Counted from the first letter of the stretch, positions 3,447 through 63,445 are shown. The stretch: 64,000 nt of DNA from Antedon mediterranea (GCF_964355755.1 NC_092673.1:19651648-19715647); one strand, 5' to 3'. A program made the numbers and translations. The notes: generated from the letters alone by a model not told the origin.

Positions 3447-6400
3447 ATGGAGAGGTACGTTTTTAACAATTATTTCAAACAAAAATAACCAGCTCCAATA
3501 TGTGTTGATATTATTGAAATATGTAACTATTAAAAACAAATTAAAATGTTTGAATAGTTATATTGACATACATTATTATATATAACATACTTTATAATCA
3601 GAATTTATAGTTCAAACAAAAAGAAAACACTTTGATTTTAAGATATTCTTTTGAGAAAAATACTTCAAACTTTCTTAAAAGATTATAAAATCCAAAATTA
3701 TTTCTTTCTTTCTTTAAAAATTATGAAATCATAAATATTACAATTAAAGCGCTTATTCTCATTAAATATAATAATAATAATATTTCCATCAATCATCATT
3801 CTCATTAAATACACGGGTATAAATGGATTATTTCTTACATTTTGACAGGAAACATTTGGTAGAAGCTTTGTCAAGGAATGATTTGAAAACAATTAAACAA
3901 ATCTGTAAGACGCAACCAGATCTTCTGAAATCTATCAATGAGGTATAAAAACAGATATATTTTTATAATATTATCAAAGAAGAAATTCTTTTCATTAAGG
4001 TTTAAAATTATAGAGGATGTAATTTTATTTAATAGTTTAAAGCTTTTTTACTTAATTACAATTCTTTTGCATTATCACACTGATGATGGAGGTATAACCT
4101 GCATATACTGATTAACCACATTAGGCTAAAAATAATAATATAAATACACACTGATGATGGAGGTATAACCTGCATGTACTGATTAACCACATTAGGCTAA
4201 AAATAATAATATAAATACACACTGATGATGGAGGTATAACCTGCATGTACTGATTAACAACATTAGGCTAAAAATAATAATATAAATACACACTGATGAT
4301 AGGGGTATAACCTGCATGCACTGATTAACCACATTAGGCTAAAAATAATAATATAAATACACACTGATGAAGGAGGTATAACATGCATGAACTGATTAAC
4401 CACATTAGGCTAAAAATAATTTGCTAGTGTAATAGGCTAACATTCTATAGATATGATGTGGTAAACCATTCTATTTTGTTCTACTCATTTATCAATAATG
4501 ATAATTATTATTATTTACCACAATATTTAGCAGCAATTGTTGTTGTTTGTATTAACAAAAAACAAACAATTTCACATAATGTCTGTTGTCAGTATTTATA
4601 AACTTCATTATGATTCCTTTCCAGGTTGGTGACACTCCATTACATTCATATCTGAGGAGAGGATATCCACCTACCTTAGAAATAGTGACTTGTCTCATTC
4701 AGCATGGGGCACCAGTAGCATTGCAAAATAAGGTAAGGTACAGGGATTTGCTAGTGTAGTAGGCTAACATTCTATAGATATGCTGTAGTAAACCATTCTA
4801 TTTTGTTCTACTCATTTATTAATAATGATAATTATGATTATTTACCACTTTATTTAGCAGCAATTGTTGTTGTTTGTATTAACAAAAAACAAACAATTTT
4901 ACATAATGTCTGTTGTCAGTATTTATAAACTTCATGATGATTCCTTTCCAGGATGGTGACACTCTATTACATTCATATCTGTGGAGTGTACGTACACCTA
5001 CCTTAGAAATAGTGACTTGTCTCATTCAGCATGGGGCACCAGTAGCATTGCAAAATAAGGTATTGTACAGGGATTTGCTAGTGTAATAGGCTAACATTAT
5101 ATATGTAGCTCTTCACAAAATAATGACAATGATAACTTAAACCCAGGTTCTCAATTTCAGCTACAAAATCGATAAAACACAGAATTCCAATACAAAATGC
5201 TTTTATTAATTATAACACAACTGCTTACTTTTAAAACTCAATACTAACTACACAGATCTGACTCATCTCTCCAATTTCACAGTATTTCTAGATAACACAG
5301 GCTATAAAACTTTCTTATTCCCCACCACAAAACCCACAAAATGGACCAGTTGTTATGGAAACCTAGATAAAGGAGGTACAGTCTTAATTAATTCAGAGAT
5401 TGGAATGTGTAAAATCAAACTAAGGCATGATCATTGAGGATATACAAGCTACTAAGTAAATATGAACTTAAATACAATAAAATAATAATACTGCTTTTAG
5501 AGTATCGCTACATCCACCCCTCCTTTCTTGAACGTCGTCCACGACGTTCGCCTGCTTCAAAACCGAGGGAGACTTGCCGAATAATCTAGTCTTAATTAGG
5601 AATTATACTAAAACTACAAACTCTACAAACTATTAAAAAGGCATAAAATGAGGAAACATCAAAATAAACAAAACTTATCTATGATAATACTGTATAAAAC
5701 AAACTTATTAGTAGTGCGGTTCATTACCACCTGAAACAGTCACATATTACCAACCATGGCAAACTGTCTATTATTAACTGTCTATTATTAACTGTATCAT
5801 TACATCATGAATACTATAAAATATAAGATACATTCCATTCTAAAATGAAATTGTACAGCGCAGTACTTGCTGTTCAGACTCAAATTGACCTAGTAAATAC
5901 TTACTCGGTATGAAACGATGAATAAACATAAGGAATGATTTAAATTACTACCGGTACTACAATACCATCACTATGGGTAACCACTTAACTACAGTATACG
6001 GTAATACTACCTTCATTATGCTTTGTTTATACATTTTTTTTAAAGTTAATTTAATTTAATACGTAAAGTATATCAATTAAGTTCAATAGGCGATTGGAAG
6101 GGATGACATCTCACTCACCCCTCCCATCTGAAACGTCGCCCCCGACGTTAATCAAGTAGTTCATGAAAATACATAAAAATATACAATATAGTTCAAACAA
6201 TTACATGTCATCAAATAGTCATATGAAAGTGTCCAAAAAGTCAGTGAAAAAAAATTTAAAAAGTGTTCCAGTGTTCACTTTAATCCAAGTCATATTCAAA
6301 CATAATAGTCGGTGTTTGAGAAGATTGAGGTATGAGTCTATTATCCAATGTATCTATATTATTTACAAATCGTTTATTTGGCGGCGACAACGATACAAAC

Positions 6401-9400
6401 GGAGATGCGTATGGGTTTAGCGAAAGACAATGAGATGGTACTATGTTGCTGGTGCTGGCATCGGCATTTGGTGAGGGTGGAGCGCTTTGGTCTGGCGTCG
6501 GAGTTGATAAATCCAATGGCAAAAACATACATGGAGTCAGTAGATTTCTATGTAATGTCCGCTGACGACCATCCGCGTTTTCAACTTTGTATACTGGAAT
6601 ATTTGGATGTTTGAACAACACGACATATGGGGTTTCCTCCCATCTGTCTACGAGTTTTTGCTTCCCGATAATATGTTTCTTTTGCACAAGGACGCGGTCG
6701 CCCAATTCCAAAGGAGCTTGAGTTGTCTTTTTGTCATACTCGCGTTTCTGTTTGTCTTTGGCTTTCATGGAAGATTTGGCAGCTTGGTCATAGACCAGCT
6801 TTAATCGCTCGCGAAATTGTAAGACCAACTCATCATAATCATCGTCATCACTATTATGATTATCGCTATCAAGTCCAAACATTACATCAATTGGCAGATT
6901 GGCATGTCGGCCGAACATTAAGTAAAATGGCGCATAACCCGTGGAATCGTGTTTAGTACAATTATATGCATGTGCCATATCGCCAACATATTCCTTCCAG
7001 TCCTGTTTACGATCTAGTGAGAGTGTACCCAGCATGTCGATTAGTGTTCTATTAAATCTCTCCGTAGTTCCGTTACCCATTGGGTGGTAGGGTGTAGTAC
7101 GCGACTTTGCTATTCCGGCGACCTTGCACACAGATTTAATTATTGCGCTTTCAAAATTACGCCCTTGATCGGAGTGTATACGTTTTGGGAAACCATAATG
7201 TCTAAATACGTTCTGAAATAGTACCTTGGCAACAGTTTCAGCCGTCTGGTTTTTTGTTGGGTACGCTAAGGCATATCGGGTGAAATGATCGGTGATAACT
7301 AAAACATTTTCATAACCTCCTTTCGACCGTTCCAGACCAAGGAAGTCGATGCATAGTAGTTCCATTGGTTCGTAAGTGTGAATATTCACGAGGGGCGCAC
7401 GTTTCACATTTGGTGAAGTTTTTCGAAGACAGCACCGTTGACATGTGTCACACCAGGTCTTAATGTCGGATGCCATCTTAGGCCAATAAAATCTTCGCCG
7501 AATCATATCGATGGTACGCTCATAACCCAAATGCCCAATGTTGTCATGCAGGTGTTCAAAAGCAAGTTTGTGTTTAGACGTTGGTAATACAAGCTGATCG
7601 CATGCTTCTCCAGTGTTGATATTGGTGGTCCTATATAATATGTTGTTTTTGAACTTTAGGCGATTCCATTGTCTGAGTAAACAGATGACATTCGGATGTT
7701 CAAGTCGACGCTCTGCTGCTGATGGCTTTTGATTGCGTCGGAGGAAGAATGTCACACGGTCAAGCACATCGTCCTCCTTCTGGAGACGGGATATGTCCGC
7801 TTGCGAAAGATTTGGGACAGGCGCAAAACCATGATTTGTGTTAACATCAGGGGCTTGCACTGGATCCCCAGCAGCATCAGTGTTGTCGATACGAGATTTG
7901 CTTCTGGTGTGGGCCTGACACTGTACAATTTGTGGTTGGACATACAGACACGGATTCACAGGGGCAGATCCTGAGAGAACCGCAGTGACCAGTTCACACG
8001 GTACGTCTTTCCTGCGAGATAACGCGTCAGCTGCTGCGTTGCTTTTTCCCGGGCGGTACTTTATATCAAAATCGAACTGGCTTAGGGCAGCCACCCAGCG
8101 TTGACCAGTCGCATCTAATTTCGCTGTGGATAGAACGTACAACAACGGATTATTATCAGTCAGTACTGTAAAGTGATTTCCAATGAGGTACTCTCGAAAT
8201 TTGTTAGTGACAGCCCATTTTAGAGCCAGGAACTCCAATTTGTGCGCCGGATAGCGAGATTCAGATGGGCGAAGGCTACGACTTGCGTAAGCAATGACTC
8301 TTGGCGTGCCATTTTGTACTTGTGAAATAACGGCTCCCAGACCGATACCAGAAGCATCCGTTTCCAAAAGAAACGGCAAATTGTAGTCAGGGTACGCTAG
8401 GATTGGAGCATTTGTCAACAGGTGTTTAAGAAGTGAAAATGCTTTGTCGCATTCTGAAGTCCATACAAATGGTGGTGGTTTGGCATTCATTGCCTTTCTG
8501 CCATTCTTTTTCTTTCGTCGTGGGTCGCCGCACGTTAGTGCATATAACGGCGCAGCTATCTCCGAATACTGGCTGATAAACCGTCTGTAATAGCCGGTAA
8601 ATCCCAAAAATTGAAGAACTTGTTTGCGGTCAACCGGCGTGGGCCAGCTGTCGACTTGCGCTGTTTTAGCAGGGTCGGCATGAATCCCCTCGGCTGATAC
8701 AATGTGGCCCAAATAATTAACCTCAGATCGAAGGAGGGAGCATTTTGAAGGCTTTAACTTCAAACCATTTTCTCTTAGACGTTTGAAAACAGTTTCCAGT
8801 CTCTCTAAATGTTCTTGAAAGTTATTAGAAAAAATAATGATATCGTCCAAGTATATTAACAAAGTAGAAAAGTTTTGGTCACCAAAGCACGACATCATCA
8901 AACGTTGAAACGTCGCCGGTGCGTTTTGGAGTCCAAATGGCATTCGGTTACACTCAAATAAACCCATTGGTGTTGTAAATGCTGTTTTTGGTTTATCTTC
9001 TTCTGCTACCTCTACCTGCCAATAGCCGCTAGTCAAATCTAATGTAGAGAAGATTTTGGCCTTACCCAGAGCATCCATAGCTTCATCTATCCTGGGTATT
9101 GGAAACGCATCTCTTACTGTTTTAGAATTAAGTTTTCTAAAATCGATACATATGCGCATTGACCCATCCTTCTTGCGAACAATCACCATCGGTGAAGCAT
9201 ATGGGCTTTTGCTTGGTCGAATGGCGCCAGCCTCTAACATACCATTGATATGCGAGCGCACTTCTTGATATTGCGATGGTGGGATGCGGCGAAAGGGTAG
9301 TCTAAATGGTTGGTTGTCAATAAGTGGTATATGGTGATATATGGCCTTAGTATGGCCAAAATCGTTTGCGTCCTTTGAGAAAACATCCGAGTATTTGTCT

Positions 9401-12400
9401 AACAGTGATTTTAGTGCTTTGTGTTCAGAGTCAGTTTTAATGTCTGATTCTGAAAGATCTGGCAGAACAGTTTGTGATGTGATATTAAGTTGGCTAATAC
9501 CACCTGTAACATCGTAAGTGTCCAAACTTGCAATTTGAGATAGAGTCGCTACCGTGGTGTTGTGGTGCAAAAAGATTGGTTTGTCAGATACATTGCAGAT
9601 TCGCACTGTAACTATATTGTTTCGCCGGATGTGGGATACTGAACGACCAACGAGAAAGTTTGTAGTACTTCCAAATGGCTCAACAAGCACAGTTGATATT
9701 TTATCTTTAGACCACACTGCAGTACATTGTATATCAATTTGTTGATTTGGGTTTATGCGAGCAGGGTGTCTATTAAAGTATACAGCTCTGCCAACATTTT
9801 CTGGTTGTATATTTTTCTCCATTTGCGCAAATGCTGCTACAAAGGCTGCATCTTTGCATTTTATGTTGTGTTTGTCGTTTTTCTGTGCACGTAGAACATT
9901 GGTCCCAATCAGAACGGGGATAGTTTTGCGGTATTTACTGTTCGGGACTACAAACACGGGAACAGCGGAGTATGTTTTATTGAGTATATTGATGTCGCTA
10001 TTAATAATTCCATAGTACGGGACACTCTGGCCATTTGCCGCTATAACTTCTATGGTTGAGCGTTCCATAACTTGTGATTTTAATTCCGGAATTTTGTTAT
10101 ATAATTCAATAGTTATAGTTGATATCTGTGAGCCTGAATCAATAAGGGCGTTACATTTTACTCCATGAATTGATATTTCTGCTTGATTGGTTGGCCCGAC
10201 AAGATATGTCTGTCCTTTGGGTGTGTGCTTTTCACCACCAACCCACCCTACTGTTGTGGTGACCTGCCGTTTCCCGTCGGCGCATTTGGGCAAAATCGTC
10301 GAATGTGTCCAATTTGGCCGCAGCCGTAGCATTCTAGTGCCCTAGGTTGTGTCATGTTGGGCCGTTGCTGCGCCGCTTCCTTTGCCTCAAGTTTAGCGGG
10401 AAGAAAGCTTATTTTCCTCTCCATCTCCGTAACTAATCTGTGCATGGACGCGTCCTCACCGGAACCTTTAACATTTGTCGGCGTTATGGGAGGGGCTACT
10501 AGGTGTGGTGCGCACGGTTGCTGCTTTCGTTCTCGTTCTAGTAGTCTTATCTCTGATAGAACAGAATGAAATGTCATAGACCTCGGTCTCATGGGCGCTA
10601 TTCGTCCAACTACTTCTTGGTCGTACATTCCCCGCATTAATTGTTGTGTCAACATTCGATCCCTTTCATGCATGGGACCTCGCCCAAGTTTCTCCTCCAC
10701 ATCTCGTAATACTGCTTCTAGTTCAATGGCATAAAAACTAGCAGACTCACCCTGTCTTTGTGTTCTCTGGTAGAAATCAGATAAGGGGTCACCAGAGGAC
10801 ACATTTCCGAATTGTTCTTTTAGTTCTTTGAATGCTCTTTCTGGTGTCTGGCATTCTCTCGGTAAGTTCAACACCAGCTTCCGTGCAGTTCCTCCCAGAT
10901 TTCTAACTATTGTTGAAAACTGTAGGTGACTAGGCATGTTGCTACAGCTTAAGATATGTTGAACATCTCTGGTCCAATCCTCAATCAGTAGGTTGGGTGA
11001 TTGTCCCGTAAATATTGGTACTCCTTTTAGTTGGTGTGCCGGGGTGTAAATTTGTACTGATTTTGGCACTGGTAATAATGGTTTTACCGCTGTATTATAC
11101 CCCTGAACTGGTCTTGGTAATCGAGGTTGGCCTGGAGTTTCTAGGCTTTGAGACACATCCGCTCTCATCGGGGTAGTATAGTAACTATTTCTCTCCCATA
11201 ATGGCGAGTTTTCTGGTTGAACAGTTTCACATCGGGTATCTTCATATCCTGTCATATCCAATACAGTATATTCCATTGTAGATTAAAATTTGTTTAACAA
11301 AACAAATCCTGGTCACGGCACCAATTGTAGCTCTTCACAAAATAATGACAATGATAACTTAAACCCAGGTTCTCAATTTCAGCTACAAAATCGATAAAAC
11401 ACAGAATTCCAATACAAAATGCTTTTATTAATTATAACACAACTGCTTACTTTTAAAACTCAATACTAACTACACAGATCTGACTCATCTCTCCAATTTC
11501 ACAGTATTTCTAGATAACACAGGCTATAAAACTTTCTTATTCCCCACCACAAAACCCACAAAATGGACCAGTTGTTATGGAAACCTAGATAAAGGAGGTA
11601 CAGTCTTAATTAATTCAGAGATTGGAATGTGTAAAATCAAACTAAGGCATGATCATTGAGGATATACAAGCTACTAAGTAAATATGAACTTAAATACAAT
11701 AAAATAATAATACTGCTTTTAGAGTATCGCTACATATAGATATGCTGTGGTAAACCATTCTATTTTGTTCTACTCATTTATTAATAATGATAATTATGAT
11801 TATTTACCACAATATTTAGCAGCAATTGTTGTTGTTTGTATTAACAAAAAACAAACAATTTTACATAATGTCTGTTGTCAGTATTTATAAACTTCATTAT
11901 GATTCCTTTCCAGAATGGTGACACTCTATTACATTCATATCTGTGGAGTGTACGTACACCTACCTTAGAAATAGTGACTTGTCTCATTCAGCATGGGGCA
12001 CCAGTAGCATTGCAAAATAAGGTATTGTACAGGGATTTGCTAGTGTAATAGGCTAACATTATATAGATCTGCTGAAGTAAACCATTCAGCAGTAATTGTT
12101 GTTGTTTGTATTTACCAAAAAAAAAACAATTTTACATAATGTCTGTTGTCAGTATTTATAAACTTCATTATGATTCCTTTCCAGAATGGTGACACTCTAT
12201 TACATTCATATCTGTGGAGTGTACGTACACCTACCTTAGAAATAGTGACTTGTCTCATTCAGCATGGGGCACCAGTAGCATTGCAAAATAAGGTATTGTA
12301 CAGGGATTTGCTAGTGTAATAGGCTAACATTATATAGATATGCTGTGGTAAACCATTCTATTTTGTTCTACTCATTTATTAATAATGATAATTATGATTA

Positions 12401-15400
12401 TTTACCACAATATTTAGCAGCAATTGTTGTTGTTTGTATTAACAAAAAACAAACAATTTCACATAATGTCTGTTGTCAGTATTTATAAACCTTATTATGA
12501 TTCCTTTCCAGAATGGTGACACTCTATTACATTCATATCTGTGGAGTGTACGTACACCTACCTTAGAAATAGTGACTTGTCTCATTCAGCATGGGGCACC
12601 AGTAGCATTGCAAAATAAGGTATTGTACAGGGATTTGCTAGTGTAATAGGCTAACATTATATAGATCTGCTGAAGTAAACCATTCAGCAGTAATTGTTGT
12701 TGTTTGTATTTACCAAAAAAAAAACAATTTTACATAATGTCTGTTGTCAGTATTTATAAACTTCATTATGATTCCTTTCCAGGATGGTAACACTCTATTA
12801 CATTCATATCTGTGGAGTGTACGTACACCTACCTTAGAAATAGTGACTTGTCTCATTCAGCATGGGGCACCAGTAGCATTGCAAAATAAGGTATTGTACA
12901 GGGATTTGCTAGTGTAATAGGCTAACATTATTTTCTATTTTGTTCTGGTTTACCACATTATTTAGCAGTAATTTTTACTGTATTGTCTCATATTATGGCA
13001 TATCTGCAGCATTGCAAAATAGGGTAATGTAGGCTTACAAAGAATTGTCAGGACAATTTCACATTTTATTGTTATCAGTATTTATAAACTTCAACTTCAG
13101 TATCAATTAGCCTCCATATTAATCAATAGTATTACTACCTCAAAGAGTAGTATTATTTAATCAGACTTACAGATATAGAATTCTCAAGTGTTTGATTTTT
13201 TTCACATTTTTCTTTTTTTACACATAGCACATTCTAACAAGTTTGTTTTGATTTAGATATTCATTTATAAGTCAACTATAATTGTAATGTGTTGTTGTTG
13301 TTTTAATATTTCATTTGTATCTGGATAGTATCCAAATATTATTTTCTTTGAAAGTTTATAGTAAAACTATTTGTTGTTTTATATTATGGCTCAAACATTT
13401 TAACACATTTACCTACTGTTCCAAAGTAAACTTTTATTCAATTTATCTCTCTCTCTCTCAATGTTGAAGGCGGTAGACTATAAACGGCAGCGCTTAAGTT
13501 TTGGTTTGGATACAGGAGTTATAGGTGGCGCACTGTACAAGTTGATGTCATTTATTGGCAAATAGTAATTTCTATTCACGTCCTAATTTACAACCAATGT
13601 TAAAAAATAGTAAATCTACGTGTTATCACATGATGCTCTTTCATCCAATCTCTAGATGGTAAATGTTTGAGCCATGACTGTATGTATGTGATGCGTATTA
13701 AAGTGTGTTATATTGTATATCAATAATTTCTCAAAAACTACTAAGTAACTACACCCATTTTTTAATAGGATGGAAATACACCTGTCTCTGTTTTAGAAAT
13801 TAACAGGTGGATAGGGTACCAGAGAAAAACTGAAATTTTAAACTTCTTTAAAAGTAAGTGAAGTTTTAATTATTAAAATTTTGGAATCAACTAGTTTTCA
13901 TTACAAACGATAAAGATTTGATTTTTTGTCCCAAATGAAGAAGACTGTCCAGATAAAGAAAATTAACATTTATGATATCATTCACAGGTTCAGATGGCAA
14001 TAGATTAAATAATCCACTGGGATTGTAGTAAACATGGAAGTTGTGATATGTTGCAAGATGTAAAAACCTTATTTTTTATGATTTGAAAATTGCAAATAAA
14101 TTAGAAAAATTATTTTGCCATTACGATAAAAATACACAAAAATGCAAACTTTAAAATTCCTTTGAATTAACAATATTGAATAAATTTGGCCACACTTTTT
14201 TTTTATGGAACGTCATTTTTCACATCAAATCAATCTCTTTATTCATCAATACATCAAAACAATTATACATAAACAAATTAAAGATGTGAAGATGAAAGGG
14301 ACCTCCAAGAAACCCAAAGGGACTTGTGATAAAAGGACCACTATAAGCTAGTTACAAAAAAAACATACAAAAAATAAATTAATAAAATTAATAAAAATCC
14401 TGTATAGACAAATACACGGGATGCGCATTGTTAAAGAATATTTGAACTTTATTAATTGCATATAAATGTAAATGTAGAATATTTTTTTTTTAAATGTAAT
14501 CTATTTTATATATAATGGTATTATTTAAAATATGTATTCGCAATCGAGGCAAACAATTTACGATAGGAGGAGATAAATATTGAATTTAACAAGGCCATAT
14601 AGATGTCTGCAGTCGCTTGCTCAAGTTAGTGTTTACCAACCGACCGACATAGTGAGTTGTAGAGTGGCGTTGCACGTGACTAAAAATCTAATTTTCTTGT
14701 TAATCCCATTTTTTGTTTCCACAATGAATGAATTTTCTTCACATACTTTAAGCCAGCTTAAGAATTCTATTTCTCTGTATGTAAAATTAAGCATCATACA
14801 TAATGTATTTTACCTTGGCTCCTACTATTGTATTATCTTGCAACTTCTTATGCAAATAGGCACAAAATAATAAGTAATATTTGAGCATAAACGCTTAAAT
14901 AATTGTAAAAGTTGTTATAAATTAATGAGCTTTCAGTAGAGTACTTATACACAGAATAATAGAATATTGCATTCATATTTTGTTTCTTTTTCTTCCCAAC
15001 TTGTTGTTACTTTTTTCTGGGAGCCTAGGCTTAAAGTTTTATACTTTTAAGGTTTCCTTCCACACATACTATGTTTTATTAATTATTATCTTACATGTTT
15101 ATATAATTATTATTTTATGTATTTTTAATATGTGTGAAGAATATTTATTCAATATCTATTGAATATTGCATAAACGAATTAAATTGCAAATATTTATCCT
15201 TGGCTTGGTGTAGGCCTACTAAAAAAGGTTGAGAATACAGAACCAAAACTGATAGTAATGTATGACAAAGTGAACAAACTTTTATAGTCTAAGGAACTTT
15301 CTTAGTCAATACATACAAGATTAAACCATTAGGTAAGAGTTCAAAATCTATTTCAAAGACCCTTTCCTTACAATTTTCGACGTTTTGTAAAAATAATGGA

Positions 15401-18400
15401 ATATTACTTTAAAAACATTAAACCAGGTTATTCCTTGTCTTAGATGTACGTTTTATGGTAATTTATAATAAAATGAGAGAAACAATGTACTCGCAGTTTA
15501 TTTATTATTATATCGTTTATATAGCCTGATCGTACCAGATGTAGCGATAGCCAGTGGAACAAAGCAAATCATTAACTTGTTTAGCCCAACAATGTTCATT
15601 TTTATTAGTTTTTCTTAGTTGAAACGTGTAACATTTAAAAGGAAATCTATTTTTATCCATTTCAGTGATTTGTAACCAATAACGAATAATAGAAATAAAG
15701 CAATCAATGTTTAAGCGTAGTCTGCTTAATTCTGATCTAACAGCCACGCTGGGTGCGCTGTTTCCAATGCCTAAAATAAATCTTGAAAAACGTGTCTGTA
15801 AATGATCAATTGGTGATAAATTCGAAAAGCCCCATGTCTCACTCCCGTAAATTAAAATTGGTAAAACTTTGTCAAAAATGTGTTTCCATATATACTCTGG
15901 TAGGTATTTTGTTTTGCTATTAATTGATTGTAAATAGTACGTACGTTATTTGCTTTTTGACAATTGTGTTCAATTGTGTTATTCCACTGACCATTTGAAT
16001 TGAAAACCACTTCCAAGTAAGTATACGATTTAACAACTTCCATTTTAATGTTTATGTAATACTGTACCATTTTTCATATTTTCTTAATTTTTCACCTTTT
16101 TTAAATACCATTATTTTTTATTTGTTTACATTTACACTAAGACCCCATGTGTCACAACATATTTCCAATATAATTATTAAATTTTGTAAACCTTTACTGT
16201 GTCTGCGAATAGTAATAAATCAGCAGCATATAGCAGATGGTTTATAAAGCAATCCCCAAATGGTATTTTTTCGTTATTTTGATTTAGCTAGTAATTCATA
16301 AATATATTAAATAGAGATAATGGCAGGGGTGACCCTTGTTGTATTCCAATTGAACATTCAAATAGGAGCGTTAATGGTTTCCTATTTTTACATGCGCTAA
16401 TAATTGGAAACTAAATAATAATATATATTATATTATATACCGTTGCTTCAATAGGCTAAAATAGTCCTTGGCTGTACTGCTAATAACTAATTGTACTGTA
16501 TATTCATTACATTGGTTGTGGGGGGAGGGGCGGTGTTCTTCTAAACACCAAGCCCTTCAAAGTATAACTAAGCTCTACCAAGTGTATAAAGTGTATGTTT
16601 TACAAATATTTATATTATACAAACATTTAGAGTTTTTAATCAATTATGCAAGCAAGCAAGTATGACACATTGTACATTCTAGGCTGATGTTTAAATTTTT
16701 TATTTTTTAACAATTAATATTTACAAAAGTGTAGCGTATACACATAATGGGGAACTAACAACTGGGGACAGTGGGCACGTTTTCTGAGCGTGTTTTAGTA
16801 GGACCAGAAAAGCGCCCTTATTGTAAGTCTTTAAAGGTGCAATTCCAGGTCTATATTGACAAAATTGTTTGACATCAGCCTAAACCATGGTTGGGCTCGA
16901 GTTATCTTTATTGTGTTTTGACAAACAGGTATAAAAACAAAATTGATTTCTGGTCATAAAACAGAATATAAATAAAAACATTCAAAAAGTTCAAAGCATA
17001 TTGAAAACTTACAATAGATGTTTTTAATCGCATTTCCTACTGCCTCATTCTGAATCATACCAGTTATTCATTTCAGGATTACTTTATTTGCACTTTACCC
17101 ATTGAAACCATGCTAATCAACCGTATATTGCTATAATTTCAACGATTTAGATTCAGGATCGCTGTCAAAAAATGTTGCAAACGTCTATATGTTTGGATGA
17201 GTTTGAGTTCCACAATTTTTTTTAGGACATAATTTAAATTAATAACTGTAGTTGTTAACTGTATACATTGTAGTTAAAAATATACATTGTTATTATTATT
17301 ATTCAGAATGAATGATTGCTTGTACACAATCACCCAGAAGTTTTTGTAAGGCTTTGTATCACACAGAGCCTTATATAACCTTATACCATTGAAAAAAAAA
17401 AGCTATGACTTTTAATATAGTGTTTTTTATGAAAATATATAATATGTAATATTTTTGTTTTGTGCATTTTTTTAGATTTATCAAGTACTGTTGATGAGCA
17501 ATTTCAGAAACAGACAAGTGACAAACAGAAAACAAAACCAGAGAGTGGTAAGTTTAAGAATAAGAGCTGCTGTATGTTTTATGATTGTATCTATATATAA
17601 TTTAACAGAAGTGTGATTAAAATGGGATTTCAGTAAAGAGAGAATTAGATGCTAATGTTATTTAAAAAATCATTTCTGAGCGGTACTGTAAAAAGGCGAA
17701 AAAGTGTCCAACTGATAACAAATAAAAAATGGAGAGATTTTATTTATCATAAATAATAACAGTTGATTGTTTCCATTTCCAAGAATGCTCGGAAACACAT
17801 ATTTTTTATTTCATATTCTTGAAGTGTATGTATCATATATATGATTTATTATGAAATTAAGAGTACAAAAGTTGATAAAGTCATCGTTAATTGCATTTTA
17901 AATTCAAAAAAATTTATTTCGACAATCAAAAATTTATGACATTTTCTTAGGCCGAAATAACAAACTTTAACTTTCTTCCTTCAAAATAAAAGTTCATATA
18001 TTAAAGTTAAAAGTATATAGTTTGACAGTGCATCGTTTTTTAACATTTTTAAAGATGTCATCATAGTAAAAAATTATAATTCAATGCGTTATGTAATAAT
18101 CTATCTGCGCCAAAGTGGTTACTGCATAGTAAATACACGGAGGAATCTTTCTACAACTTTTAGTCAGTTGTGTATGGCTCGGTGGTCTGTGCTCGTGTCT
18201 ATGGCATTCAAGGTACCGAGATCGAGTCTCACATTGGGAAAGGAAATAAGATTTTTTTTAATATCCGTATTGTTTGTTCAATTTTATTTGTTAGTGTATA
18301 GATTATACACATAATTTATAATGAAATCTAGATAAAAAGTAAGTAATGTCTTTATTACTATGTAACAATGTTGTATGACATTATACGCGGAGGGATCTTT

Positions 18401-35080: not shown

Positions 35081-35205
35081 AAAAAATGACCAAATTGATA
35101 ATGATGTTATTATATTAATGATGTGCAATTGTCAGTCTGTGTTAACTGTCACCCTTTTTAATTCATATTTTGCGATATCAATGTTGTCATCCTTCATGCT
35201 GCATT

Positions 35206-37500: not shown

Positions 37501-37504
37501 TAGA

Positions 37505-41157: not shown

Positions 41158-43083
41158 TTGGGTGTTTATATTAGTTACAAGGCAGTTGAAGAAGTCCCGA
41201 AGAAAACAAGAAACCAAAATGCTCATCCCTGGGATGGTGATGAAAGACTACAACAGCTTATAAAAGAAAGAAAGAATATTAACAAAAGCATAGTTACCTA
41301 CAAAGAAGAGGAGATCAAGGCTATGCAGAAAGCAATTAAGATAAGAGTGAAGGAACTACGGAATGAATATTTGTATGAAGAAGCAAGCAAGTTAAATGAA
41401 GCCCACCAAAATAGAAAAATATTTGATTTATGGAGAAAAGCTAAGGAGCACGGTGATGTTATAAGAAAAGCACCAAAGCCTATAAAATGTCCTGGATTAC
41501 GTGAACACTTTAAAGATCACTTTAATCCAGACCAATCTAGCCTTAAAATCCCAGATGAAATTAGCACACCTCCAGAATATATTATCAACCTGAGACAACC
41601 AGAATTTGAGATGGACAATGAACCTCCGTCCAAGAAAGAAATTATTGATGCAATCGGACATCTAAAAGGTCGCAAAGCTACCCTAGATGTCGCTTCTGAA
41701 ATGTTGCAAGTCGCCACAGAGAACCCAGTATTCGTCGACCATGTACATAGACTGTTTGAGGAAATTTGGAGAACGAAAGAAGTACCAAGTGATTGGGGAC
41801 TGTCCAAATTAACAACCATTTGGAAAAAAAAAGGCAGTCCACTTGATCCATCAATGTATAGAGGAATATCAATTGGGTCTACATTTTCAAAGATACTTAT
41901 GGTTATCATTCTTTCACGTTTTTCCATCTTTTATGAAAGTCAACTTCTACGCACACAGTTTGGATTCAGGTCCAACAGAGGGTGCAATGATGCTATATAT
42001 GTAATCAAGCAGATCCAGGAAATTGCGTATCGCTCAAATCGCAAACTCTATACATGCTTCATTGATTTAACAGCAGCATTCGACCATGTGAATCGTAATC
42101 TTCTTTTCCTAAGCGTTCGTAATAGGTTTCACTTAAACCAGTCTACTACTATGATTGACATTATACAATCACTGTACAGCTCAACGAAAGCATACCTTGC
42201 TGACGACGATCCGAGTGATGATAAGTTCGAAACATCTTCTGGGGTGCGACAGGGTGGTATTGAGAGTACCAGCATGTTTAACCAATATTTTGATTACGTT
42301 ATTAGAGTGTTCAAACAACGCTGTAAAGATGCTAGTTTGGATGGCCTAATGATACAATACCTAATTCCTATTGAAGCTACAAATCGTGCTCAAAGATGTA
42401 AAGCACCATCAAGGGGCATCTATGACGACTTTGAAAGTGGCTATGCTGACGACTTTGCTGTAAGCTCCTGGTCACAAGAAGAACTGCAAACCATTGTGAA
42501 CATCTTGAATAAAGTTTGTCTGGAATTTGGTCTAAGAATTAGTGCCCCCAAAACAGAAACCATTATATGGAACTGGAAAGAGGAAGTTGAAGAATACCCA
42601 AGATGCATCATACAAATTGGCGGCGTACACATTAACAACGTAACACACTTTAGATACCTTGGTGTATGGGCTACCTACAATGATGTTCATATTGGAGATC
42701 AAGAAGTAAAATACAGAATCAATTCAGCCAAAGGAGCATTTGCAGAGAATAGGGCATTGCTTACCAACAGAACGATCCACCTACAAACAAGAATAATGTT
42801 TCTTAATGGTCTAGTTAGGAGTAGACTCACCTATGGTTGCCATGCTTGGAGGGCAACAGGAAGTGAAATGTCCAAACTTAGCACAACATACAAAACCTTC
42901 CTAAGAAGAATGCTAGTGAATGGCTTTCAAAGAGTCTGCCCACCAAACCATGTAGACATATCCTCAGATGAAGAAACAGATGAAAACTATATAGACTGGC
43001 GTTACGTAATTGATAATGACGATCTCTACAAAATTACTGGCTGTCAAGCAATTTCTGTAATTATTTTATACACATCTGTCTAA
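41158..43083 (+). mobile_element. Non-LTR (RTE-like) retrotransposon RT ORF, truncated at both ends
   Basis: 641-aa open frame with YRGISIGS, QFGFR, FIDLTAAFD, GVRQG, YADD and FRYLG. No endonuclease domain is visible. Confidence 0.9.
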
Positions 43084-43780: not shown

Positions 43781-43807
43781 ATGATGTTCTATTATACTGT
43801 ATGTTTA

Positions 43808-44143
43808 TGAAGACGGTGTATTTTTAAAATGGAGAGGTATGGTTTTTCAAATTTATTTAAATTACGAATAAATTAACTTTCAATTATTTGTTGATATTTA
43901 TTTTGCTTTTTTAAATTTCATTTTTATGTCGCTTTTAACAAAGTGTAAAAAAAAATATGTATATATCAAAAGACCATAGAGATGTATTGTCCCCCAAAAA
44001 CATGACAAAATGAAGATTATATATGACTGTCATGAACACTGACATCATCTGGCATTGATTTGGTCATCTCACTTTCTAGATCTTAAGAGATCTTAAGTTG
44101 ACTTTTTGAAAGTGTAAAGTTAAGTTGACTTAGGCTGTGTTTA
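43808..44143 (+). repeat. About 335-bp duplicate of 45395-45729 containing the gene 2 start codon and donor
   Basis: Near-identical sequence from atgaagacggtgtatttttaaaatggagag|gtatgg to ctgtgttta. Confidence 0.9.
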
Positions 44144-51318: not shown

Positions 51319-52825
51319 AGTAAGTGAAGTTTTAATTATCAAGATTTTGGGGTAAACCAATTTTCATTGCAAAGGACAGATGTTCAATTTCTTTTTCCAA
51401 TGCTTTGATAAACTGATTTTGAAAATGTTCTCATACTGATCATATGATGAGCTCTGTAAATTGTGTGCATGTACGGTATCCATGCATTGTGCTATTGAAA
51501 AACTCTTTAAACTTATAGAGAATCATTGTGAGGATGTATGTAATTTATTTATAATTTCTGAACCATGCCTTATGTAGATGTGAATGAATTATGCACATTT
51601 ACAGGTTTATTAGTTTTCTTCTTTCATTAGCATTGACTATAATCACAAATGATGCAGTCATTAAAAATACAATTCACGGGGTAGGGGTACAAAAACGGTT
51701 TTTAGAGTCAAAGTAATATTGATGGATAATATGGTGCATAATTAGCAAGCAAGGTGATTGTTTACAACTGGAAATGTTTTGTGATCGATTAGGAGCTACC
51801 TGTTTCAGAGCATAGATTTCATTTTTATGAGTTATTATAGGGGTCAAAAGGCTAATGATGACCTCTCAATAATTTATTTTGGGATCAATTGCTTTCCCTG
51901 ACAAACCTGTTTCTGTGTATAAGTAGTGCGTCATCAATGCACTACAAAACCAACATATGATATATTAGGGACTTTTAGATTTGAGTGAACGTGAACTAAA
52001 TCCACGTCCACATGGGTCGTAGTCGACTGTTACTCGTCGACAGATATATGAACGCAACCTTTTTTGACTCCGACCCCATGATCCTATTTTGGTAATTCTC
52101 GCGACCCAACATTGCGTATTTGAGCCACAGACCTGCCATGTTAAGTGACACCCATAGATGGCCGGAAATGGTACTGTCGCACGTAAAAATCCATATAAAA
52201 GGCACCTCTAGTCCACTATAATAATAGCGCGCTCGCAATTGGCAAAAGGATCGTAGCCTACTTTTTCCGCCGGTACACACATTTGTGTTCAATGCTAACA
52301 TCCCGAACCATAAAAAGTTCCCCTGGCTAGGAACAACATCGCTATGAGTGTAATTTGGTAGGGACCTGTTTCTATTGAATGTTCATTGTAAATGTTCCCA
52401 CCGCCGGTGCATCAAAGGATGCACTTTTTCAGTCAAGTTACACACTCATTGCAAACTACAGAAAAATAGCGTCATAGAACCAGTTGGTAGATTATTAAAT
52501 TCACGCCCTAAAAGGGGATTCCCCACTTGTATATTAGCAACGAACTATGTGTCAAAAGCGTCCATTGGCCCGTCGTCAATTCCCAATTGTGTGTACGCTA
52601 CTCGCCTCAAAAAAAAAACTGTAGATGTAAAATATAATTAGCCTTTGTAGATTACCTTTCACATCTAGATCAGTTTATACTTTCTAAAAGGTTTCAGTAT
52701 CTGAAACATTCTCGATCCATCAATTTGTTTTCGCGACCCAAACATTGGGTCTTGACCCATAGGTTGCGGAACGGCGGTTTAGATTAAGTGGATATTTTTT
52801 TTATTTTTTTTTTTTTAGAATTTAG

Positions 52826-53440
52826 GATTTATAATACAAAGAATATAATGTAACTTATTATTATAGGAATAAAATAATTAGAGTGAGTAGTAAATGTAAC
52901 TTATAATTAGAGTGAGCTGTGTTTTTGTAGTTGTTCCTAATAGCTGATTATAGATATAGAAAATTGTTGAATTTAATTAATATTATATATCATATTCGAA
53001 TAATGATGATTATTAAACAATATTTAAAACAATGCTGAATTTATTACTTAAAATTGAAAATGATTTTGTGGACTTTCTTGAATTTTTATTCATAAATCTT
53101 AAAACAGTAATTATGATAAGAATGCTATCTACTGAATTTATTTCCTGAAATTAGAAATGATTTTGTGGCATTTCATTAATTATACTGTATTAATATTCAA
53201 ATAATGATTATGATTTCAACAATAATTATGATGCTAATCTACAGAATTTATTACATTGGAAAATATTGTGGTGTTTTATGAATTTATATTTATTATTTAT
53301 ATTATAATCTTAAAAAAACAATTACAATTTCTGTAACTGTTATACTAAATGTATTGATACTGTTTTTCATTCGTATAGATCTCTCAGAAGATTTAGCCCA
53401 ATGATGCAATAAACATGGACATTCTATTCATACAAATGTT
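52826..53440 (+). repeat. Paralogous copy of the gene 1 last intron and terminal exon (about 31040-31670)
   Basis: Collinear similarity including the acceptor ...gtatag|atctctcaga and ttagcccaatgatgcaataaacatggacattctattcatacaaatgtt. Confidence 0.85.
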
Positions 53441-54436
53441 AGATGACGTTAAAGTGTTGAAAACTGGTACCAGTACAATCTATCCGCGAATTTATTAGGG
53501 ATTTGGTTGCGATTTAATGTTAGCGTGTCATACCTCAATGTACAATACTGTAGATACCCTGGTAACCCAGAATTAAAACACACTAGTTATTGTCTGTGGT
53601 GTTCTCTTTCCACAAAAAAAATTGGTGTCCCCCTATAATAGGATTAAATCAACCATTTTTAAATTACTTTCATATACTAATGGCTTATTTCATGAACGAA
53701 TTATTTTTTAAATTAAGGTGATGCAAAATATTACTATAAAATAATAATGTAAACAAGATGATTTATTTGTGTATAAAAAGACAATTTACAATAAAATCCT
53801 TTCTAATTTTAATCAGTTGTATTTGTCATTGTGTGCATATGTTTTGATGTTGTGGAGCTTTCTGAAAAAAAAAAAATGAGCATGAAACAAATTCCCAAAT
53901 GATGCTAAGATAACTTTTGATTATGATAAGTTCTATAATATCTGAATGTGTATTCGGTTTACAAAGCAACCAATAATATCATAATTAGATGCAACTGATT
54001 TTCAGCGAGGCCGATTTCATATGTCACCGTGTATTCTGCACATGAGTAGTTAATTAAAGAATTATTATACAAAAAAATGTATTTTTGATATAATTACATT
54101 ATATAGGCCTTATAGTCACTGTAGTATTTATTTGTTAGCATACCCTAGTAGCCCTTTAAAGTACTATGTTGTTTGAATGATGCGCCCTCTATAAAAAAGT
54201 ATACCAATGCATGAAGATCGTATGTCAACAAAAACACATGTTAAACTGAACTTTTTTTTGTTGCATAATATAATAGGCCTATCCCCCTAGCCTAGGCCTA
54301 TTTTTTTTTCACGTAGGAAAATATCTTTAACAAAATGTTTAGCATTAGCATCACATTCTTACATTCATAACTGCAAACATGCCACCAAAAACTTCAGAAA
54401 AATTGATAGTATGTATACTTTAAATTTGTTCGTAAA

Positions 54437-54975
54437 TTTATGTTATGTAGAATAGAATTTATGTTATGTAGACTAGAATTTGTGTTATGTAGACTAGAAT
54501 TTATGTTATGTAGACTAGAATTTATGTTATGTAGACTAGAATTTATGTTATGTAGACTAGAATTTATGTTATGTAGACTAGAATTTATGTTATGTAGACT
54601 AGAATTTATGTTATGTAGACTAGAATTTATGTTATGTAGACTAGAATTTATGTTATGTAGACTAGAATTTATGTTATGTAGACTAGAATTTATGTTATGT
54701 AGACTAGAATTTATGTTATGTAGACTAGAATTTATGTTATGTAGACTAGAATTTATGTTATGTAGACTAGAATTTATGTTATGTAGACTAGAATTTATGT
54801 TATGTAGACTAGAATTTATGTTATGTAGACTAGAATTTATGTTATGTAGACTAGAATTTATGTTATGTAGACTAGAATTTATGTTATGTAGACTAGAATT
54901 TATGTTATGTAGACTAGAATTTATGTTATGTAGACTAGAATTTATGTTATGTAGACTAGAATTTATGTTATGTAG
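54437..54975. repeat. 21-bp near-perfect minisatellite (ttatgttatgtagactagaat), about 25 copies
   Basis: Directly visible tandem array. Confidence 0.97.
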
Positions 54976-56606: not shown

Positions 56607-58028
56607 GGCAAAGTAAAATGGACAGAATGAAAGCAAACAAGTAAGGTGTATTTCTAATAATAATAGTTCATTCTTATAGCGCATATAGGCAAGCTCTCAA
56701 TGCGCTCCTTATATAGCGCATATAGGCAAGCTCTCAATGCGCTCCTTTTATAGCGCATATAGGCAAGCTCAATGCGCTCCTTATATAGCGCATATAGGCA
56801 AGCTCTCAATGCGCTCCTTATATAGCGCATATAGGCAAGCTCTCAATGCGCTCAACATTATTACCAAAGTCATAAATAATAATAATAGTTCATTCTTATA
56901 TAGTGCATATAGGCAAGCTCTCAACATTATTACCAAAGTCATAAATAATAATAATAGTTCATTCTTATATAGCGCATATAGGCAAGCTCTCAATGCGCTC
57001 CTTATATAGCGCATATAGGCAAGCTCTCAATGCACTCCTTATATAGCGCATATAGGCAAGCTCTCAATGCGCTCCTTATATAGCGCATATAGGCAAGCTC
57101 TCAATGCGCTCCTTATGTAGCGCATATAGGCCAGCTCTCAATGCGCTCCTTATATAGCGCATATAGGCAAGCTCTCAATGCGCTCCTTATATAGCGCATA
57201 TAGGCAAGCTCTCAATGCGCTCCTTATATAGCGCATATAGGCAAGCTCTCAATGCGCTCAACATTATTACCAAAGTCATTTTTTTTTTTATCAAATGCGC
57301 AAGGAAATATACTCCAGAATGCAGATAGTAATCAGCGCAAAGTTGTGAAATTAATATATAAAATAACATTTTTGTTGAAAACAACACCTAATACATTTTG
57401 AAAGGTCATATCCCACATATTTAAAAATAATTTTCAACAACAAAAAATGAGGATGATTTTATATATATTATTTTTATATATACTGTATATTATATTCCTA
57501 AAAAGGTTTTTAGGAATTAACATTATTTTGTTGACTTGTAATGTTTTATTTCCCCAAATAATGTTGTGCTGCTATTTAAAAGAAGTTCTGTTTATAAATT
57601 ATTTTGTAGAAAAACTGCCAAAACAATAAAACATGAACAAGAAAAAGAAAGAGATGTGTCTGAAAAGGAAATAAAAGGTGAAAATAAAACAAGTTATAGT
57701 TGTTTATAATTCACACATTTACCACAATTAAATTTTTGGACTCTCAGAGGACAAAGTAATGAACCAATGTTATGTAAAAGTGTATTTCAATCCATTTCAC
57801 CATTGGAAAGCCATTATGGCACAATGTTTTAAGAACTGTGCTTTAAAATATATTGCTTTAAAATCTGTATGTGTTTTTCTAATGCAGAAAATAAATTTGT
57901 ATGAACTGTAAAGGGGTCTTATCTAATTCTAACAAACATATTGTACTTTTATTATCAATTTGTTATAGGTGAAGATTACACTTACTAATGCTTAGTCTGC
58001 TGAGCTGAGAACATACCTAGCTGGACAG
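56607..58028 (+). other. Candidate upstream exons of gene 3 (56607-56640, 57610-57677, 57969-58028)
   Basis: Good AG/GT sites. The first two join in frame (MDRMKANKKTAKTIKHEQEKERDVSEKEIK); the third contains stops in that frame. Confidence 0.35.
56670..57260. repeat. 37-bp minisatellite derived from a SINE 3' end
   Basis: Unit ccttatatagcgcatataggcaagctctcaatgcgct; continues into SINE-like sequence to about 57350. Confidence 0.85.
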
Positions 58029-58984
58029 GTAAGTTATTTATTATTTACTGTATTAATTAAACATATAGAAGGACATTATAAGAAAAAACACACCACCCCG
58101 CTTGAAAAAAATGTTAATTGAATTGACAAATTGTATCGAAAACACACTAGTTCATCTCAGATAATAGTAACATTTAAGCATTTCTTCATATTTTTTTATA
58201 TAGATTGCTTGAGCCATGGTGTCAGTCAGTATGAGTATGAGATGCATTTAAAAATATAATACATTTATAAAGCTTATAGTCTACACTGACAAACCTTCGT
58301 TTGCAAACTCTGAGTTTTCAAAGTCTACCTTGTAGACCAGTTGACAAACTTTGAAAACTGCAGAAAACAAGTTTTCACAAGTCTACACTAGCAAACTTTG
58401 AAAATAGACCTGATTTTTGTGTTGAGTTGGTGTTTACTTTTTAACTCTCAATAACCTTTTAATAGTAAAATAAATTTTATAAACAATTCATAGTTGAAGA
58501 TTCAAATAATTCTCTGATCACATTATGGCACTGAATGGTCAATTTACTCAATGGAAATATGAATGGCCAGAACTATTAGTACATAACAGAATATAATCTT
58601 GCAGCCTGCTGGAAATAATGCTGTCAAAGGAATCGTGTTTTTGCAAATTTTGAAACCACTATTTTATCCATTTTTTCATTTTTCTTTTAGTTGTGTTAAT
58701 GTTGAAATTACTATTACAGTATAATTATTATTATGTATGTATTAACATGTTAATGCTTGTGAAGGTTATTGGTCTGCTCTTGTGAATATAAACAGAAGGT
58801 CTCAATAGAATTGAGCCCATTTGTCTGAAATAATACTTACTACTATCTGGCAACACAGAGTCAGATGTGCGGCAAACTCTTTTTCAACGCGGTGGATCGA
58901 TGATAATGATTACAATTTTTTTATTTTGAAAGGCCAATTGCATTTTTAATATTAACCACTGAAAAATATCCGAAAATGCAAGTT

Positions 58985-60890: not shown

Positions 60891-62926
60891 AGTAGTTTAC
60901 TCTTTCATTTTCTCCTTCTTGGACTACCTAAGGCATGTGGTGCACCCTAACCTTGTGTTGCTCCCAGAGCCTGAATTAATTTTAGCGGCTATTCAATACC
61001 TGAACAATGACTCAACATCATCTGTTGAAATTTCATGTTTAACTAAATTTGTTTATACCACACTTTCATTTCAAAAGATATAAATAATATAAACTGACAT
61101 TTCTGGTTTATTTTAACATTTGACTGAAAGTTATGTATCTGTCTCTACAAATGTTTGTGAAAAAATTATATAAGGTTAAGGATATATCTAATATGTAAAA
61201 TTTCCTAACCACATATTGATTGTGTGTGTATTGTTCACCATCATGTAACATTTGCTATTGTTAAGCCACATTGATATTATAATATGTATTGTGCATGTGA
61301 GGTTCAAGGGTTACATCAGTCTTAGAAGACGTCTATGGAAATGAACAAATCAATAATGCACAAACACAATGGTACTGTAAATTGTAAAAAAATGGATATG
61401 GATGTCAACATGTATTTTGCTTTTTGCATAGCTGGTTATGCAAGTTTCTCTGTAATTTCTGGCACTTTAACCTCTGAACCTTGGAAGCCTCCCTTTCTCC
61501 CAGCCTAAAGTTGCTCACTCCACTAGCAAAAACATAATAAAGTTACTGGATTTGTTCTTTAGTTCCCCTCACACCTTCTAAAACAATTTTCTAGTTAACC
61601 CAGGGTATTTTTTTTCTAGGAATGATATGTTATATATTTATATATATTATAAATTTTAAGTTCTGTTGTCATAGAATAAAAAATACTATAACATGCCGTA
61701 GAAACTAATCGTAAAATGCACAGATGATAATACTGTTTTATTTGGCAATATATATCAAGCATTTATAAAGACTCTGAAGCCCTCTAAACACACAAAACTC
61801 ATATTTAGGAACCCTATAGCATCATATTTTCTGTATTCCTTTAAGATTGGTAAGATATATTCGTCATTAAATGTGTTATGCTGAATTACAGTATATACCA
61901 CCATGGTAGTTAAAAAGCTAGTTACAACCATTCTCTTCTGGGAATATCTGTACTAATATATTTCTTGACTGTGTCTTAAATGTTGCATAATCTCCAGGTC
62001 ACTTTTAGTGATACGTTCGAACAAATGCATCAATTATTTATTATATTATCATTATAACATAGAATCAATGTTTTTTGGACATATTAAAGGTGTATTGTCC
62101 TCCTGAAAATATAATTCTTATGCCATTTTAATGTCACATTAAATAGTTATCCGCTATGACCAAAAGTTGGATTGAAAAAAAAAATCGTATTTAACTTAAA
62201 AAACCCCTGTAATTTAAAGCAAAAATCAGTCAAATTAGCTGCCAGCCAACGGGTTTTTGGTTGAATTTAACCATTTATTAGAGTATATCATTGTATGACT
62301 GAACAAATTATTGTTTTTCTTTTTTTTTCTATAGAAGTGATTAACTTTATTAAAACTACAAAATAACCTATAGTATTCAAAGTCTGATTTAATTAATCTT
62401 CATTTTTCAAGTTTTTGGGGGACAATACAATATCTTTAAGCGACTCCCTTCTATTTTAGTTATATCATGGACGAATAACAACTAGTTTACCTCCATGGTT
62501 ATATAAAGTAGCTGAATTATTAGCTTTTCTTAACCAAGCATTCCTCTCTCCAGACTAGACAATCACAATACTGTATGTTTGGTAACATTTCCACTCAAAG
62601 AAACAAAAGTCTAAATATCATACATTATTGAGTTAGGAAATAAAGACTTTAGTTTAAGAATTTTGAAGTCATAAAATTGTCTCAAACATTTTGGGGTTCA
62701 GTTTCTTCAAATCAATAATCAAATTATCTATAATTCAAAGTGATATTGTTAAAAATCACACAAAGTGTGAACATGATTTATTTCTTTATTCTTTATGGAT
62801 TTATTGTAGATGGTGTCATTTTAAGAATCTTCCATGCAATATAATCTGTAACCATAATTACATGACACCATTGGATGTAATCAGTAGTGTACAGGCTAAA
62901 TAATATTCTTTTATGGAATTTTGCAG

Positions 62927-63445
62927 GCTAAAGCAAACTTTGAAATGGAAACAAATTTCCAGCAACTGAAATTGTCTTTCAGTGGACACTATAGAGGTGA
63001 CAAGTATAAGTGGCTGAGGTTCTTCCTTTCGATCACGTAACTGTAGAGGATATTACACATTCTTTTAATAGTGATTTTTTAATAGACAAACTCGAGCAGG
63101 AAAGTATAATCTCACCACAGAATGTCAGCCTTCTGTTAGATATTGCTTTAGTAACACAATTGACGGATGCCGTAGATCTGGTAATTCAGTATATGAATGT
63201 CAATGGTCAATACACTGATAAAGAAATTTCAAAATATCGAAAACAACTATTTGAGGTCTTAAGAGAAAGTGAACAAACTAATTTGAGCAGGGTTATTGCT
63301 CACTATGGTATGAAGTCAACTGAAATTAAAGATATTTGGGATGCAGTTTTGATGTTAGAGATTTGTGGCGATTTAGAAGATGACAATGACAAAATTAAAC
63401 ATTTTGAGAGTCTTCTTAAAATAAGCTCAAAGGAAGCACTAACTG
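62927..63445 (+). pseudogene. Gene 3: tandem DED-like exon paralogous to 30045-30581, with a 1-nt frameshift near 63027
   Basis: METNFQQLKLSFSGHYRGDKYKWLRFFL aligns with gene 1 NNFRDLKAGLSRCFDGERYHWIRFLL; the frame then shifts to FDHV...ISPQNVSLLLDI...ISKYRKQLF...IWDAVLMLEICG. The phase-1 donor is at the same position as in gene 1. Confidence 0.75.

Follow-up and report, generated by a model that had tools for sequence, protein, structure and literature searches.

Gene 1 and its modules

The 64,000-nucleotide stretch analysed here (Antedon mediterranea, GCF_964355755.1 NC_092673.1:19651648-19715647; hereafter the window) is AT-rich animal DNA whose plus strand holds, between positions 3447 and 63445, a gene whose predicted product joins an ankyrin (ANK) array, a ROC GTPase, a COR region and a tandem death effector domain (DED), followed by an ankyrin-only gene and by the first coding exon of another tandem-DED gene. 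We refer to these as genes 1, 2 and 3. An initial annotation, made from the DNA alone, had read them as a kinase-less Roco receptor of 1184 amino acids (aa) coupled to caspase-8-type signalling, with sensor-only and effector-only derivatives, in an architecture that it did not know to have been characterised.

Spliced from the ATG at 3447, gene 1 comprises 26 exons joined over introns that are all GT-AG and phase-compatible (25/25), and its frame stays open through the predicted 1184 aa when the last exon is taken as 30861-30880. The open frame bears out a complete ANK-ROC-COR-tandem-DED gene, as does the exact identity of residues 621-1184 with a deposited A. mediterranea protein model, P0001 (XP_071947637.1; P numbers denote protein models throughout); P0013, a sister model, matches residues 330-1184 with 96.7% identity. 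Exons 1-2 (3447-3454, 3849-3942) supply the start codon and an ankyrin N-cap (aa 1-34), an N-terminus matched in P0018, P0032 and P0033. The layout is indeed kinase-less, the model opening at this N-cap as those three do, and no kinase-like open reading frame was seen upstream of gene 1 within the window. The N-cap is followed by six phase-0 ankyrin repeat exons of 108 nt each (4625-4732, 4952-5059, 11914-12021, 12185-12292, 12512-12619 and 12783-12890), an ankyrin C-cap exon (13769-13853), a pre-ROC linker exon (17476-17547), the ROC GTPase in exons 11-18 (18607-22634), the COR region in exons 18-23 (22377-25667; Pfam COR-A), a 45-nt linker exon in phase 1-1 that also lies within P0001 (29589-29633), and a single phase 1-1 exon that encodes the tandem DED (30045-30581; aa 1000-1178). 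The last coding exon (30861-30918, stop at 30878-30880) is succeeded by a further 3' exon at 31585 with an AATAAA at 31636. In its alternative frame this last coding exon resembles the linker preceding the second tandem DED of P0002 and of P0011, the latter a double-tandem-DED protein, so that gene 1 has probably lost a second tandem-DED pair.

The switch module of the gene 1 model is its ROC-COR core, in which COR follows ROC directly; a NACHT or NB-ARC ATPase is absent from the model. Pfam Roc matches P0013 at E 8e-15, and COR-A reaches E 7e-8 from one gene 1 exon, with E 1e-12 reported for the sister model P0013 and for P0001. The closest solved structures to P0013 are bacterial Roco proteins and LRRK2, the alignment with Roco structure 4wnr spanning both ROC and COR. 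The motifs G1 (GQEGVGKT, aa 335), G3 (WDHGGQ, 468) and G4 (IVGTHKG, 553) can be placed in gene 1, with G1 and G3 preserved across paralogs and an acidic insert between G2 and G3. At G4 (22038-22217; aa 553-559) the Asp is replaced by Gly, and THKG or THKA is found throughout gene 1's ROC clade, whereas the guanine-specifying Asp is kept in the Anneissia relative P0030 and in the first ROC of P0018, which represents a second ROC type. The nucleotide specificity of gene 1's clade may thus be altered. A starfish Roco, P0031 of Patiria, has hydrophobic, membrane-like segments inserted within its ROC domain.

The C-terminal exon had been described as two DED-like domains, and structural modelling upholds a death fold there. 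Against Pfam DED the exon scores 19.2 bits (cut-off 35.9) and over the first DED only; several relatives exceed the cut-off. A model built from 14 close paralogs was poor (predicted local distance difference test, pLDDT, 63; best Foldseek E 0.56), and one that drew on 38 diverse relatives had a pLDDT of 95.6 and a predicted template-modelling score (pTM) of 0.88. Foldseek places the latter at TM 0.69-0.74 to the caspase-8 tandem DED, with a best E of 0.0013 and no row at E <=0.001. Structural comparison, with Z values computed over Foldseek's 150 chains, gave Z 15.0 to the caspase-8 tandem DED (root-mean-square deviation 2.9, 157 aligned) and Z 12-14 to cFLIP and vFLIP; unrelated rows stayed at Z <=3.8. 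The profile and language-model searches agree weakly with a tandem-DED assignment: the best profile match is cFLIP at E 0.011, and the top Atlas matches are DED and vFLIP-like (0.91-0.92) with a recognition value of 2106, under the 2300 mark. We conclude that the gene 1 tail is a predicted caspase-8-type tandem DED, sharing with caspase-8, cFLIP and vFLIP both the fold and the DED1-DED2 packing over 157 residues. It differs from them in its low identity (15-17%) and in its C-terminal place on a GTPase receptor, and is known from sequence and model.

Each ankyrin exon of gene 1 encodes exactly one 36-aa repeat, and 11 such phase-0, one-repeat exons occur across genes 1 and 2. Pfam Ank scores one gene 1 repeat exon at E 0.0036, below cut-off; the paralogs P0033 and P0034 exceed it. 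In the window, 11 full repeat matches and one partial one were found, all on the plus strand, and no inverted intronic repeat exons; half an ankyrin exon survives as a remnant past repeat 6 (12980-13031). Gene 1 repeats 2-6 differ from each other by 0-2 nt, and repeats 1 and 2 by 19 differences in 326 aligned bases, 6 of which cluster in a 15-nt stretch (p 0.006 in a scan test that assumes uniform placement); all of the exon sites that differ between these two are non-synonymous (8/8). When 13 distinct repeats of the window and of paralog models are compared, 6-8 residue states and a variable length are seen where helix 1 ends and in the loop after it, the usual ankyrin binding face, and 1-4 states elsewhere. 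For five repeat exons the proportion of non-synonymous differences (pN) in the loop is 0.25-0.80 and that of synonymous differences (pS) over the whole exon 0-0.26, with loop positions chosen post hoc and a loop blurred by indels. This pattern fits diversifying selection on the ankyrin loop without proving it. Intron 4 also houses, antisense and outside the receptor, an intact Ty3/Gypsy long terminal repeat (LTR) retrotransposon (5104-11735, minus strand) with a gag of 344 aa, a pol of 1353 aa, 410-bp LTRs that are 100% identical and a TATA target duplication.

A crinoid Roco family and a shared DED network

How far the ANK, ROC-COR and DED parts are joined in transcripts bears directly on the gene 1 model. 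We treated one run, X1, as RNA-like, although it is not on record as RNA, because its cover of gene 3 is confined to the exon and because it contains two exon-exon joints; gene 1 introns are also covered by it. Among the X1 matches listed, from which the joints were taken, one contig has the ankyrin C-cap exon spliced in frame to the pre-ROC exon and a second joins exons 18-19, and no full-length gene 1 transcript was seen. The joining that the initial annotation presupposed is thus seen, at least within the family, for the ANK-cap/pre-ROC step; no transcript or model was found to span ANK, ROC-COR and DED. Elsewhere the ankyrin module stands in small separate models (P0032, P0033) or is fused to another ROC type (P0018, P0034). 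In P0018 a gene 1-type ankyrin module precedes two ROC-COR units that differ from each other, and the C-terminus has hydrophobic segments; the model is either a genuine double Roco or a fusion of two neighbours.

Gene 1 is not a single-copy housekeeping gene. Of 23 ROC-COR matches among deposited proteins, 21 are from Antedon, 16 of them on one 36.19-Mb contig, and a second crinoid, Anneissia, has the ANK-ROC relative P0030; family counts are lower bounds, drawn from deposited protein models of which some are truncated or mis-joined. The differing tails of these copies include several tandem-DED types, Death, kinase and hydrophobic or transmembrane segments, as expected of the multi-copy, diversifying family that had been proposed. 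Paralogs that are 98-100% identical in COR may be only 23-70% identical in their tails (100 vs 23% for P0008/P0016, 98 vs 70% for P0001/P0008), and P0001/P0004 shows the reverse (70 vs 80%). Over 16 chosen members, which give 120 non-independent pairs, the identities of COR and tail are barely correlated (Spearman 0.14, p 0.11). Tail exchange between family members is the likely origin of this pattern. In P0123, a ROC domain is preceded by four near-identical tandem-DED units in series.

A search with the tandem DED returned 69 clusters at 50% identity, and of 21 checked by name 19 are from Antedon, one is from Anneissia and one is spurious. Among 67 tandem-DED relatives scanned for further domains, seven carry NACHT, two a caspase, one TIR, one a GVIN-type GTPase, one a PARP14-type domain, two TRIM/NHL, three ZU5 and three a kinase, and some carry ROC/COR. 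The NACHT carriers are NACHT-LRR proteins of A. mediterranea, and both caspases keep their His and Cys motifs, so candidate partners of the caspase-8 type envisaged for gene 1 do exist in this species (2/67 relatives). The two tandem-DED caspases and the tandem-DED TIR protein (P0182, P0186 and P0187) have nearby accessions, and the contigs that bear the caspases and the TIR isoform agree in length (31.9 Mb); they possibly form an effector cluster.

Neighbouring genes and the rest of the window

Gene 2 (45417-53441, plus strand; coding 45417-51319) encodes 241 aa made up of an N-cap, five diverse repeats and a C-cap, and confirms the presence of an ankyrin-only paralog on the same strand as gene 1. 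Its exons lie at 45417-45424, 47043-47136, 47907-48017, 48187-48291 (with a GC donor), 48435-48542, 49352-49459, 50009-50116 and 51235-51319, and a TAA closes the cap exon one base ahead of the last donor. Its 3' region (52823-53441) is 80% identical to 31037-31669 of gene 1 and includes a putative last exon at 53379 with an AATAAA at 53408. We rejected read-through to a distant ROC: no ROC/COR remnant was found downstream of gene 2, nor anywhere past 31000 in the window, and if the TAA were absent, only 8 residues would be gained from the following exon. Gene 2 looks like an internal deletion derivative of a gene 1-type copy and would give a free ankyrin module, a decoy or a relic. The region of its first exon has a 98.5% duplicate at 43807-44143.

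The third gene departs from what had been expected, namely a DED-only paralog acting as an effector-only derivative. Its first coding exon (62927-63445, plus strand) encodes an N-terminal tandem DED and ends at a phase-1 donor 555 bases before the window edge, the protein running beyond it. P0183 is identical to the exon at 84/84 positions and then continues into ZU5; cover by X1 around gene 3 consists of the exon only, and the match of its contig ends at 63445, with 95 extra letters that fall outside 62450-64000. A DED-only adaptor is accordingly rejected. In the window copy one base shifts the frame at about 63026, a defect that the initial annotation does not mention. A contig of X3 has this window form, and X1, X2 and X4 the intact one, X3 sharing its sample with X2 and X4; an assembly error is therefore unlikely as the sole cause. 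The intact form is P0193 (138/139 identical), and the window form is an allele or a near-identical paralog. The DED pairs of genes 3 and 1 are only 39% identical, too far apart for gene 3 to have arisen recently from gene 1. In P0193, ZU5 is followed by an HFS motif (aa 298-300), and a UPA domain after ZU5 is suggested by likeness to P0148, whose own UPA match is weak. HFS is carried by the self-cleavage sites of PIDD (PMC3210808), and PIDD1, CARD8 and NLRP1, with their ZU5-UPA autoproteolysis, likewise set ZU5 and HFS beside a death-fold module (PMC3210808). Gene 3 differs from them in having its tandem DED at the N-terminus, and both its UPA, predicted by likeness, and its cleavage are putative. 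We regard it as a putative separate PIDD-like tandem-DED-ZU5(-UPA) component of gene 1's DED network. A short segment at 57970-58029, bounded by AG...GT, is a possible 5' untranslated exon for gene 3.

Between genes 1 and 2, at 37276-39000 and 41113-43083, lie a broken DIRS-like element on the minus strand, with a Dam-type methylase match at E 9e-5 and a DIRS label that is our interpretation, and a long interspersed nuclear element (LINE) reverse-transcriptase frame of 656 aa on the plus strand. Long minisatellite arrays occupy 25903-28271, 31853-35082, 54435-54975 and 56675-57259 (units of 88, 21, 62, 69, 21 and 37 bp) and give rise to spurious open reading frames, and the window has no Rfam matches (0).

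A candidate Roco receptor system and its alternatives

We suggest, with a probability of roughly 57%, that gene 1 is a kinase-less Roco of a crinoid-expanded modular family, likely an NLR-like intracellular sensor whose predicted tandem-DED tail would nucleate tandem-DED assemblies. We rejected membership of the NLRs themselves, the protein having no NACHT or NB-ARC, so that its NLR likeness is a claim about how it would work. In such a receptor, the variable ankyrin surface would bind something made by a pathogen or a host protein under guard, and ligand binding would shift a nucleotide-dependent ROC-COR dimer cycle of the kind described for Roco proteins (PMC4104024). The clustered tails could then seed a DED filament, filaments being formed by the caspase-8-type tandem DED (PMC11874512), that recruits tandem-DED caspases or the TIR protein, either directly or through double-tandem-DED adaptors, and this recruitment would end in cell death or in an immune signal. 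Both input and output would be renewed as exons duplicate and tails are exchanged.

Several observations weigh against this reading. Gene 1 repeats 2-6 are nearly identical, contrary to what a diversified binding surface would show; pN and pS are about equal elsewhere than in the loop, so the repeats may be weakly constrained; in the loop itself, indels swell the apparent number of changes, and its positions were selected after inspection; and a young 6.6-kb retrotransposon sits amid the ankyrin exons. Because the G4 Asp is missing in its clade, the use of GTP by gene 1 is not assured. The X1 joint between cap and pre-ROC exons differs from the window at 3 letters and at 2 cap-exon sites, perhaps as a paralog or an allele, and is therefore evidence for the family rather than for the gene 1 copy itself. 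No deposited model was found that joins ANK, ROC-COR and tandem DED, P0001 lacking everything before aa 621 and P0013 everything before aa 330, and the COR-to-DED junction (exons 23-24-25) rests on deposited gene models. The tail differences likewise derive from automated models in a tandem array, where exons may be mis-joined. Finally, the tandem DEDs of the caspases and the TIR protein are 23-27% identical to gene 1's and fall on a separate branch (FastTree, 103 pairs), so that similarity does not identify the partner.

Some of these features would also be expected if the array were mostly neutral duplication debris, left behind as an unstable region duplicated in tandem and shuffled its exons, with the 5' half of gene 1 perhaps unused. 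The truncated gene 2, the frameshifted gene 3, the fresh retrotransposon, the homogenised repeats and the pN near pS outside the loop all fit such decay, as do the deposited models P0008, P0016 and P0019, which begin mid-gene or inside intron 9. We nevertheless consider this unlikely: GT-AG boundaries and frame are kept at 25/25 introns across 1184 codons, G1 and G3 are preserved among paralogs, X1 contains spliced joints, and the second crinoid Anneissia has an ANK-ROC relative, P0030; immune clusters, moreover, typically hold birth-and-death debris too. A different role altogether, that of a DAPK-like scaffold in death or NF-kB signalling linked to development, stress or regeneration, would put the tandem DED outside pathogen sensing. 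DAPK1 shares the ANK-ROC-COR-death-fold order with gene 1, and family members have kinase, Death or transmembrane tails; gene 1 differs from DAPK1 in lacking a kinase, in having a tandem DED instead of one Death domain and in being multi-copy, and DAPK orthology was rejected on the absence of an N-terminal calmodulin-regulated kinase from a model that opens with the ankyrin N-cap. Uses of DEDs beyond caspases are documented, as in vFLIP/IKK-gamma and PEA-15/ERK2 (PMC11874512). A fixed developmental role sits poorly with the copy number, the turnover of repeats and the exchange of tails, and many fusion partners of the gene 1-type tandem DED are immune-type domains, which leaves the scaffold improbable in our estimation.

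The tail might instead be inhibitory, a protease-less tandem DED that caps caspase filaments in the manner of cFLIP-S or vFLIP and makes gene 1 a nucleotide-gated brake or guard. That cFLIP and vFLIP nearly equal caspase-8 in the structural comparison (Z 12-14) and that cFLIP is the best profile match (E 0.011) would suit a brake, yet every solved tandem DED matches about equally well, which leaves the ranking silent on the sign of activity, and repeat-switch-death-fold layouts such as NLRs and Apaf-1 usually activate. A brake therefore seems very unlikely to us.

The activating sensor that we favour has precedents in brown-algal ROCO exon shuffling, in Trichoplax ROCOs and in a sponge ROC-COR-DED-caspase row. 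Brown-algal LRR-ROCOs of the Ectocarpus type resemble the gene 1 family in being clustered and expanded, in encoding one repeat per symmetric exon and in repeat turnover, and these exon-per-repeat ROCOs have been proposed as immune receptors (PMC3341825, PMC11378527). Their repeat is a 24-aa leucine-rich repeat in phase 2, whereas gene 1 uses a 36-aa ankyrin repeat in phase 0, has its death-fold effector on an exon of its own, and shows none of the inverted intronic repeat exons (PMC3341825). Trichoplax, with at least 17 ROCOs, offers a lineage-specific animal expansion with varied flanking domains that include CARD and Death (PMC4104024); the words DED and ankyrin are absent from the available text of that paper, and no exon-per-repeat sensor was found in it. 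TIR-ROCO proteins occur in Aplysia (PMC9334734), and bacterial LRR-ROC-COR-effector proteins have been described as counter-invader systems (PMC8195603). The AP-GTPase(ROC)+COR conflict proteins combine, as gene 1 does, variable repeats, ROC-COR and a variable effector (PMC8195603), and two sponge rows in the available supplement of that paper (APGTPase+COR+DED+TRADDN+CASPASE and DED+TRADDN+Ankyrin+APGTPase+COR+Death) have one DED plus TRADD-N in place of gene 1's tandem DED; neither ANK-ROC-COR-tandem DED nor a crinoid appears in the 11 APGTPase entries listed there (0 of 11). Neither the crinoid family nor the ANK-ROC-COR-tandem-DED layout was found described in the literature searched, which was mostly without subscription papers and with one PMC8195603 supplement file left out. 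The tabulated sponge relatives make the layout less unprecedented than the initial annotation suggested.

More tentatively, and at somewhat less than even odds, crinoids may possess a second, GTPase-switched receptor system beside NLRs, a 'Roco-some' in a deuterostome, in which exon-per-repeat ankyrin Rocos with a swappable tandem-DED exon draw on a DED network private to the lineage, with NLRs, PIDD-like ZU5 proteins, caspases and a TIR enzyme as its other members, and exon exchange rewires both sensing and output. Rocos have long been suspected to be immune receptors through brown algae, bacteria and links to LRRK2 and MFHAS1; to our knowledge, none has been shown to sense and trigger death in the manner of an NLR. 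The gene 1 family offers a short path to such a test by bringing together, in one genome, a kinase-less Roco, an output defined by its predicted death fold, and caspases and a TIR protein as candidate partners. If our reading is true, it would show that the ROC-COR switch of LRRK2 and DAPK can drive a filament-forming effector, and it would add to echinoderm immunity a large and so far unstudied tandem-DED network.

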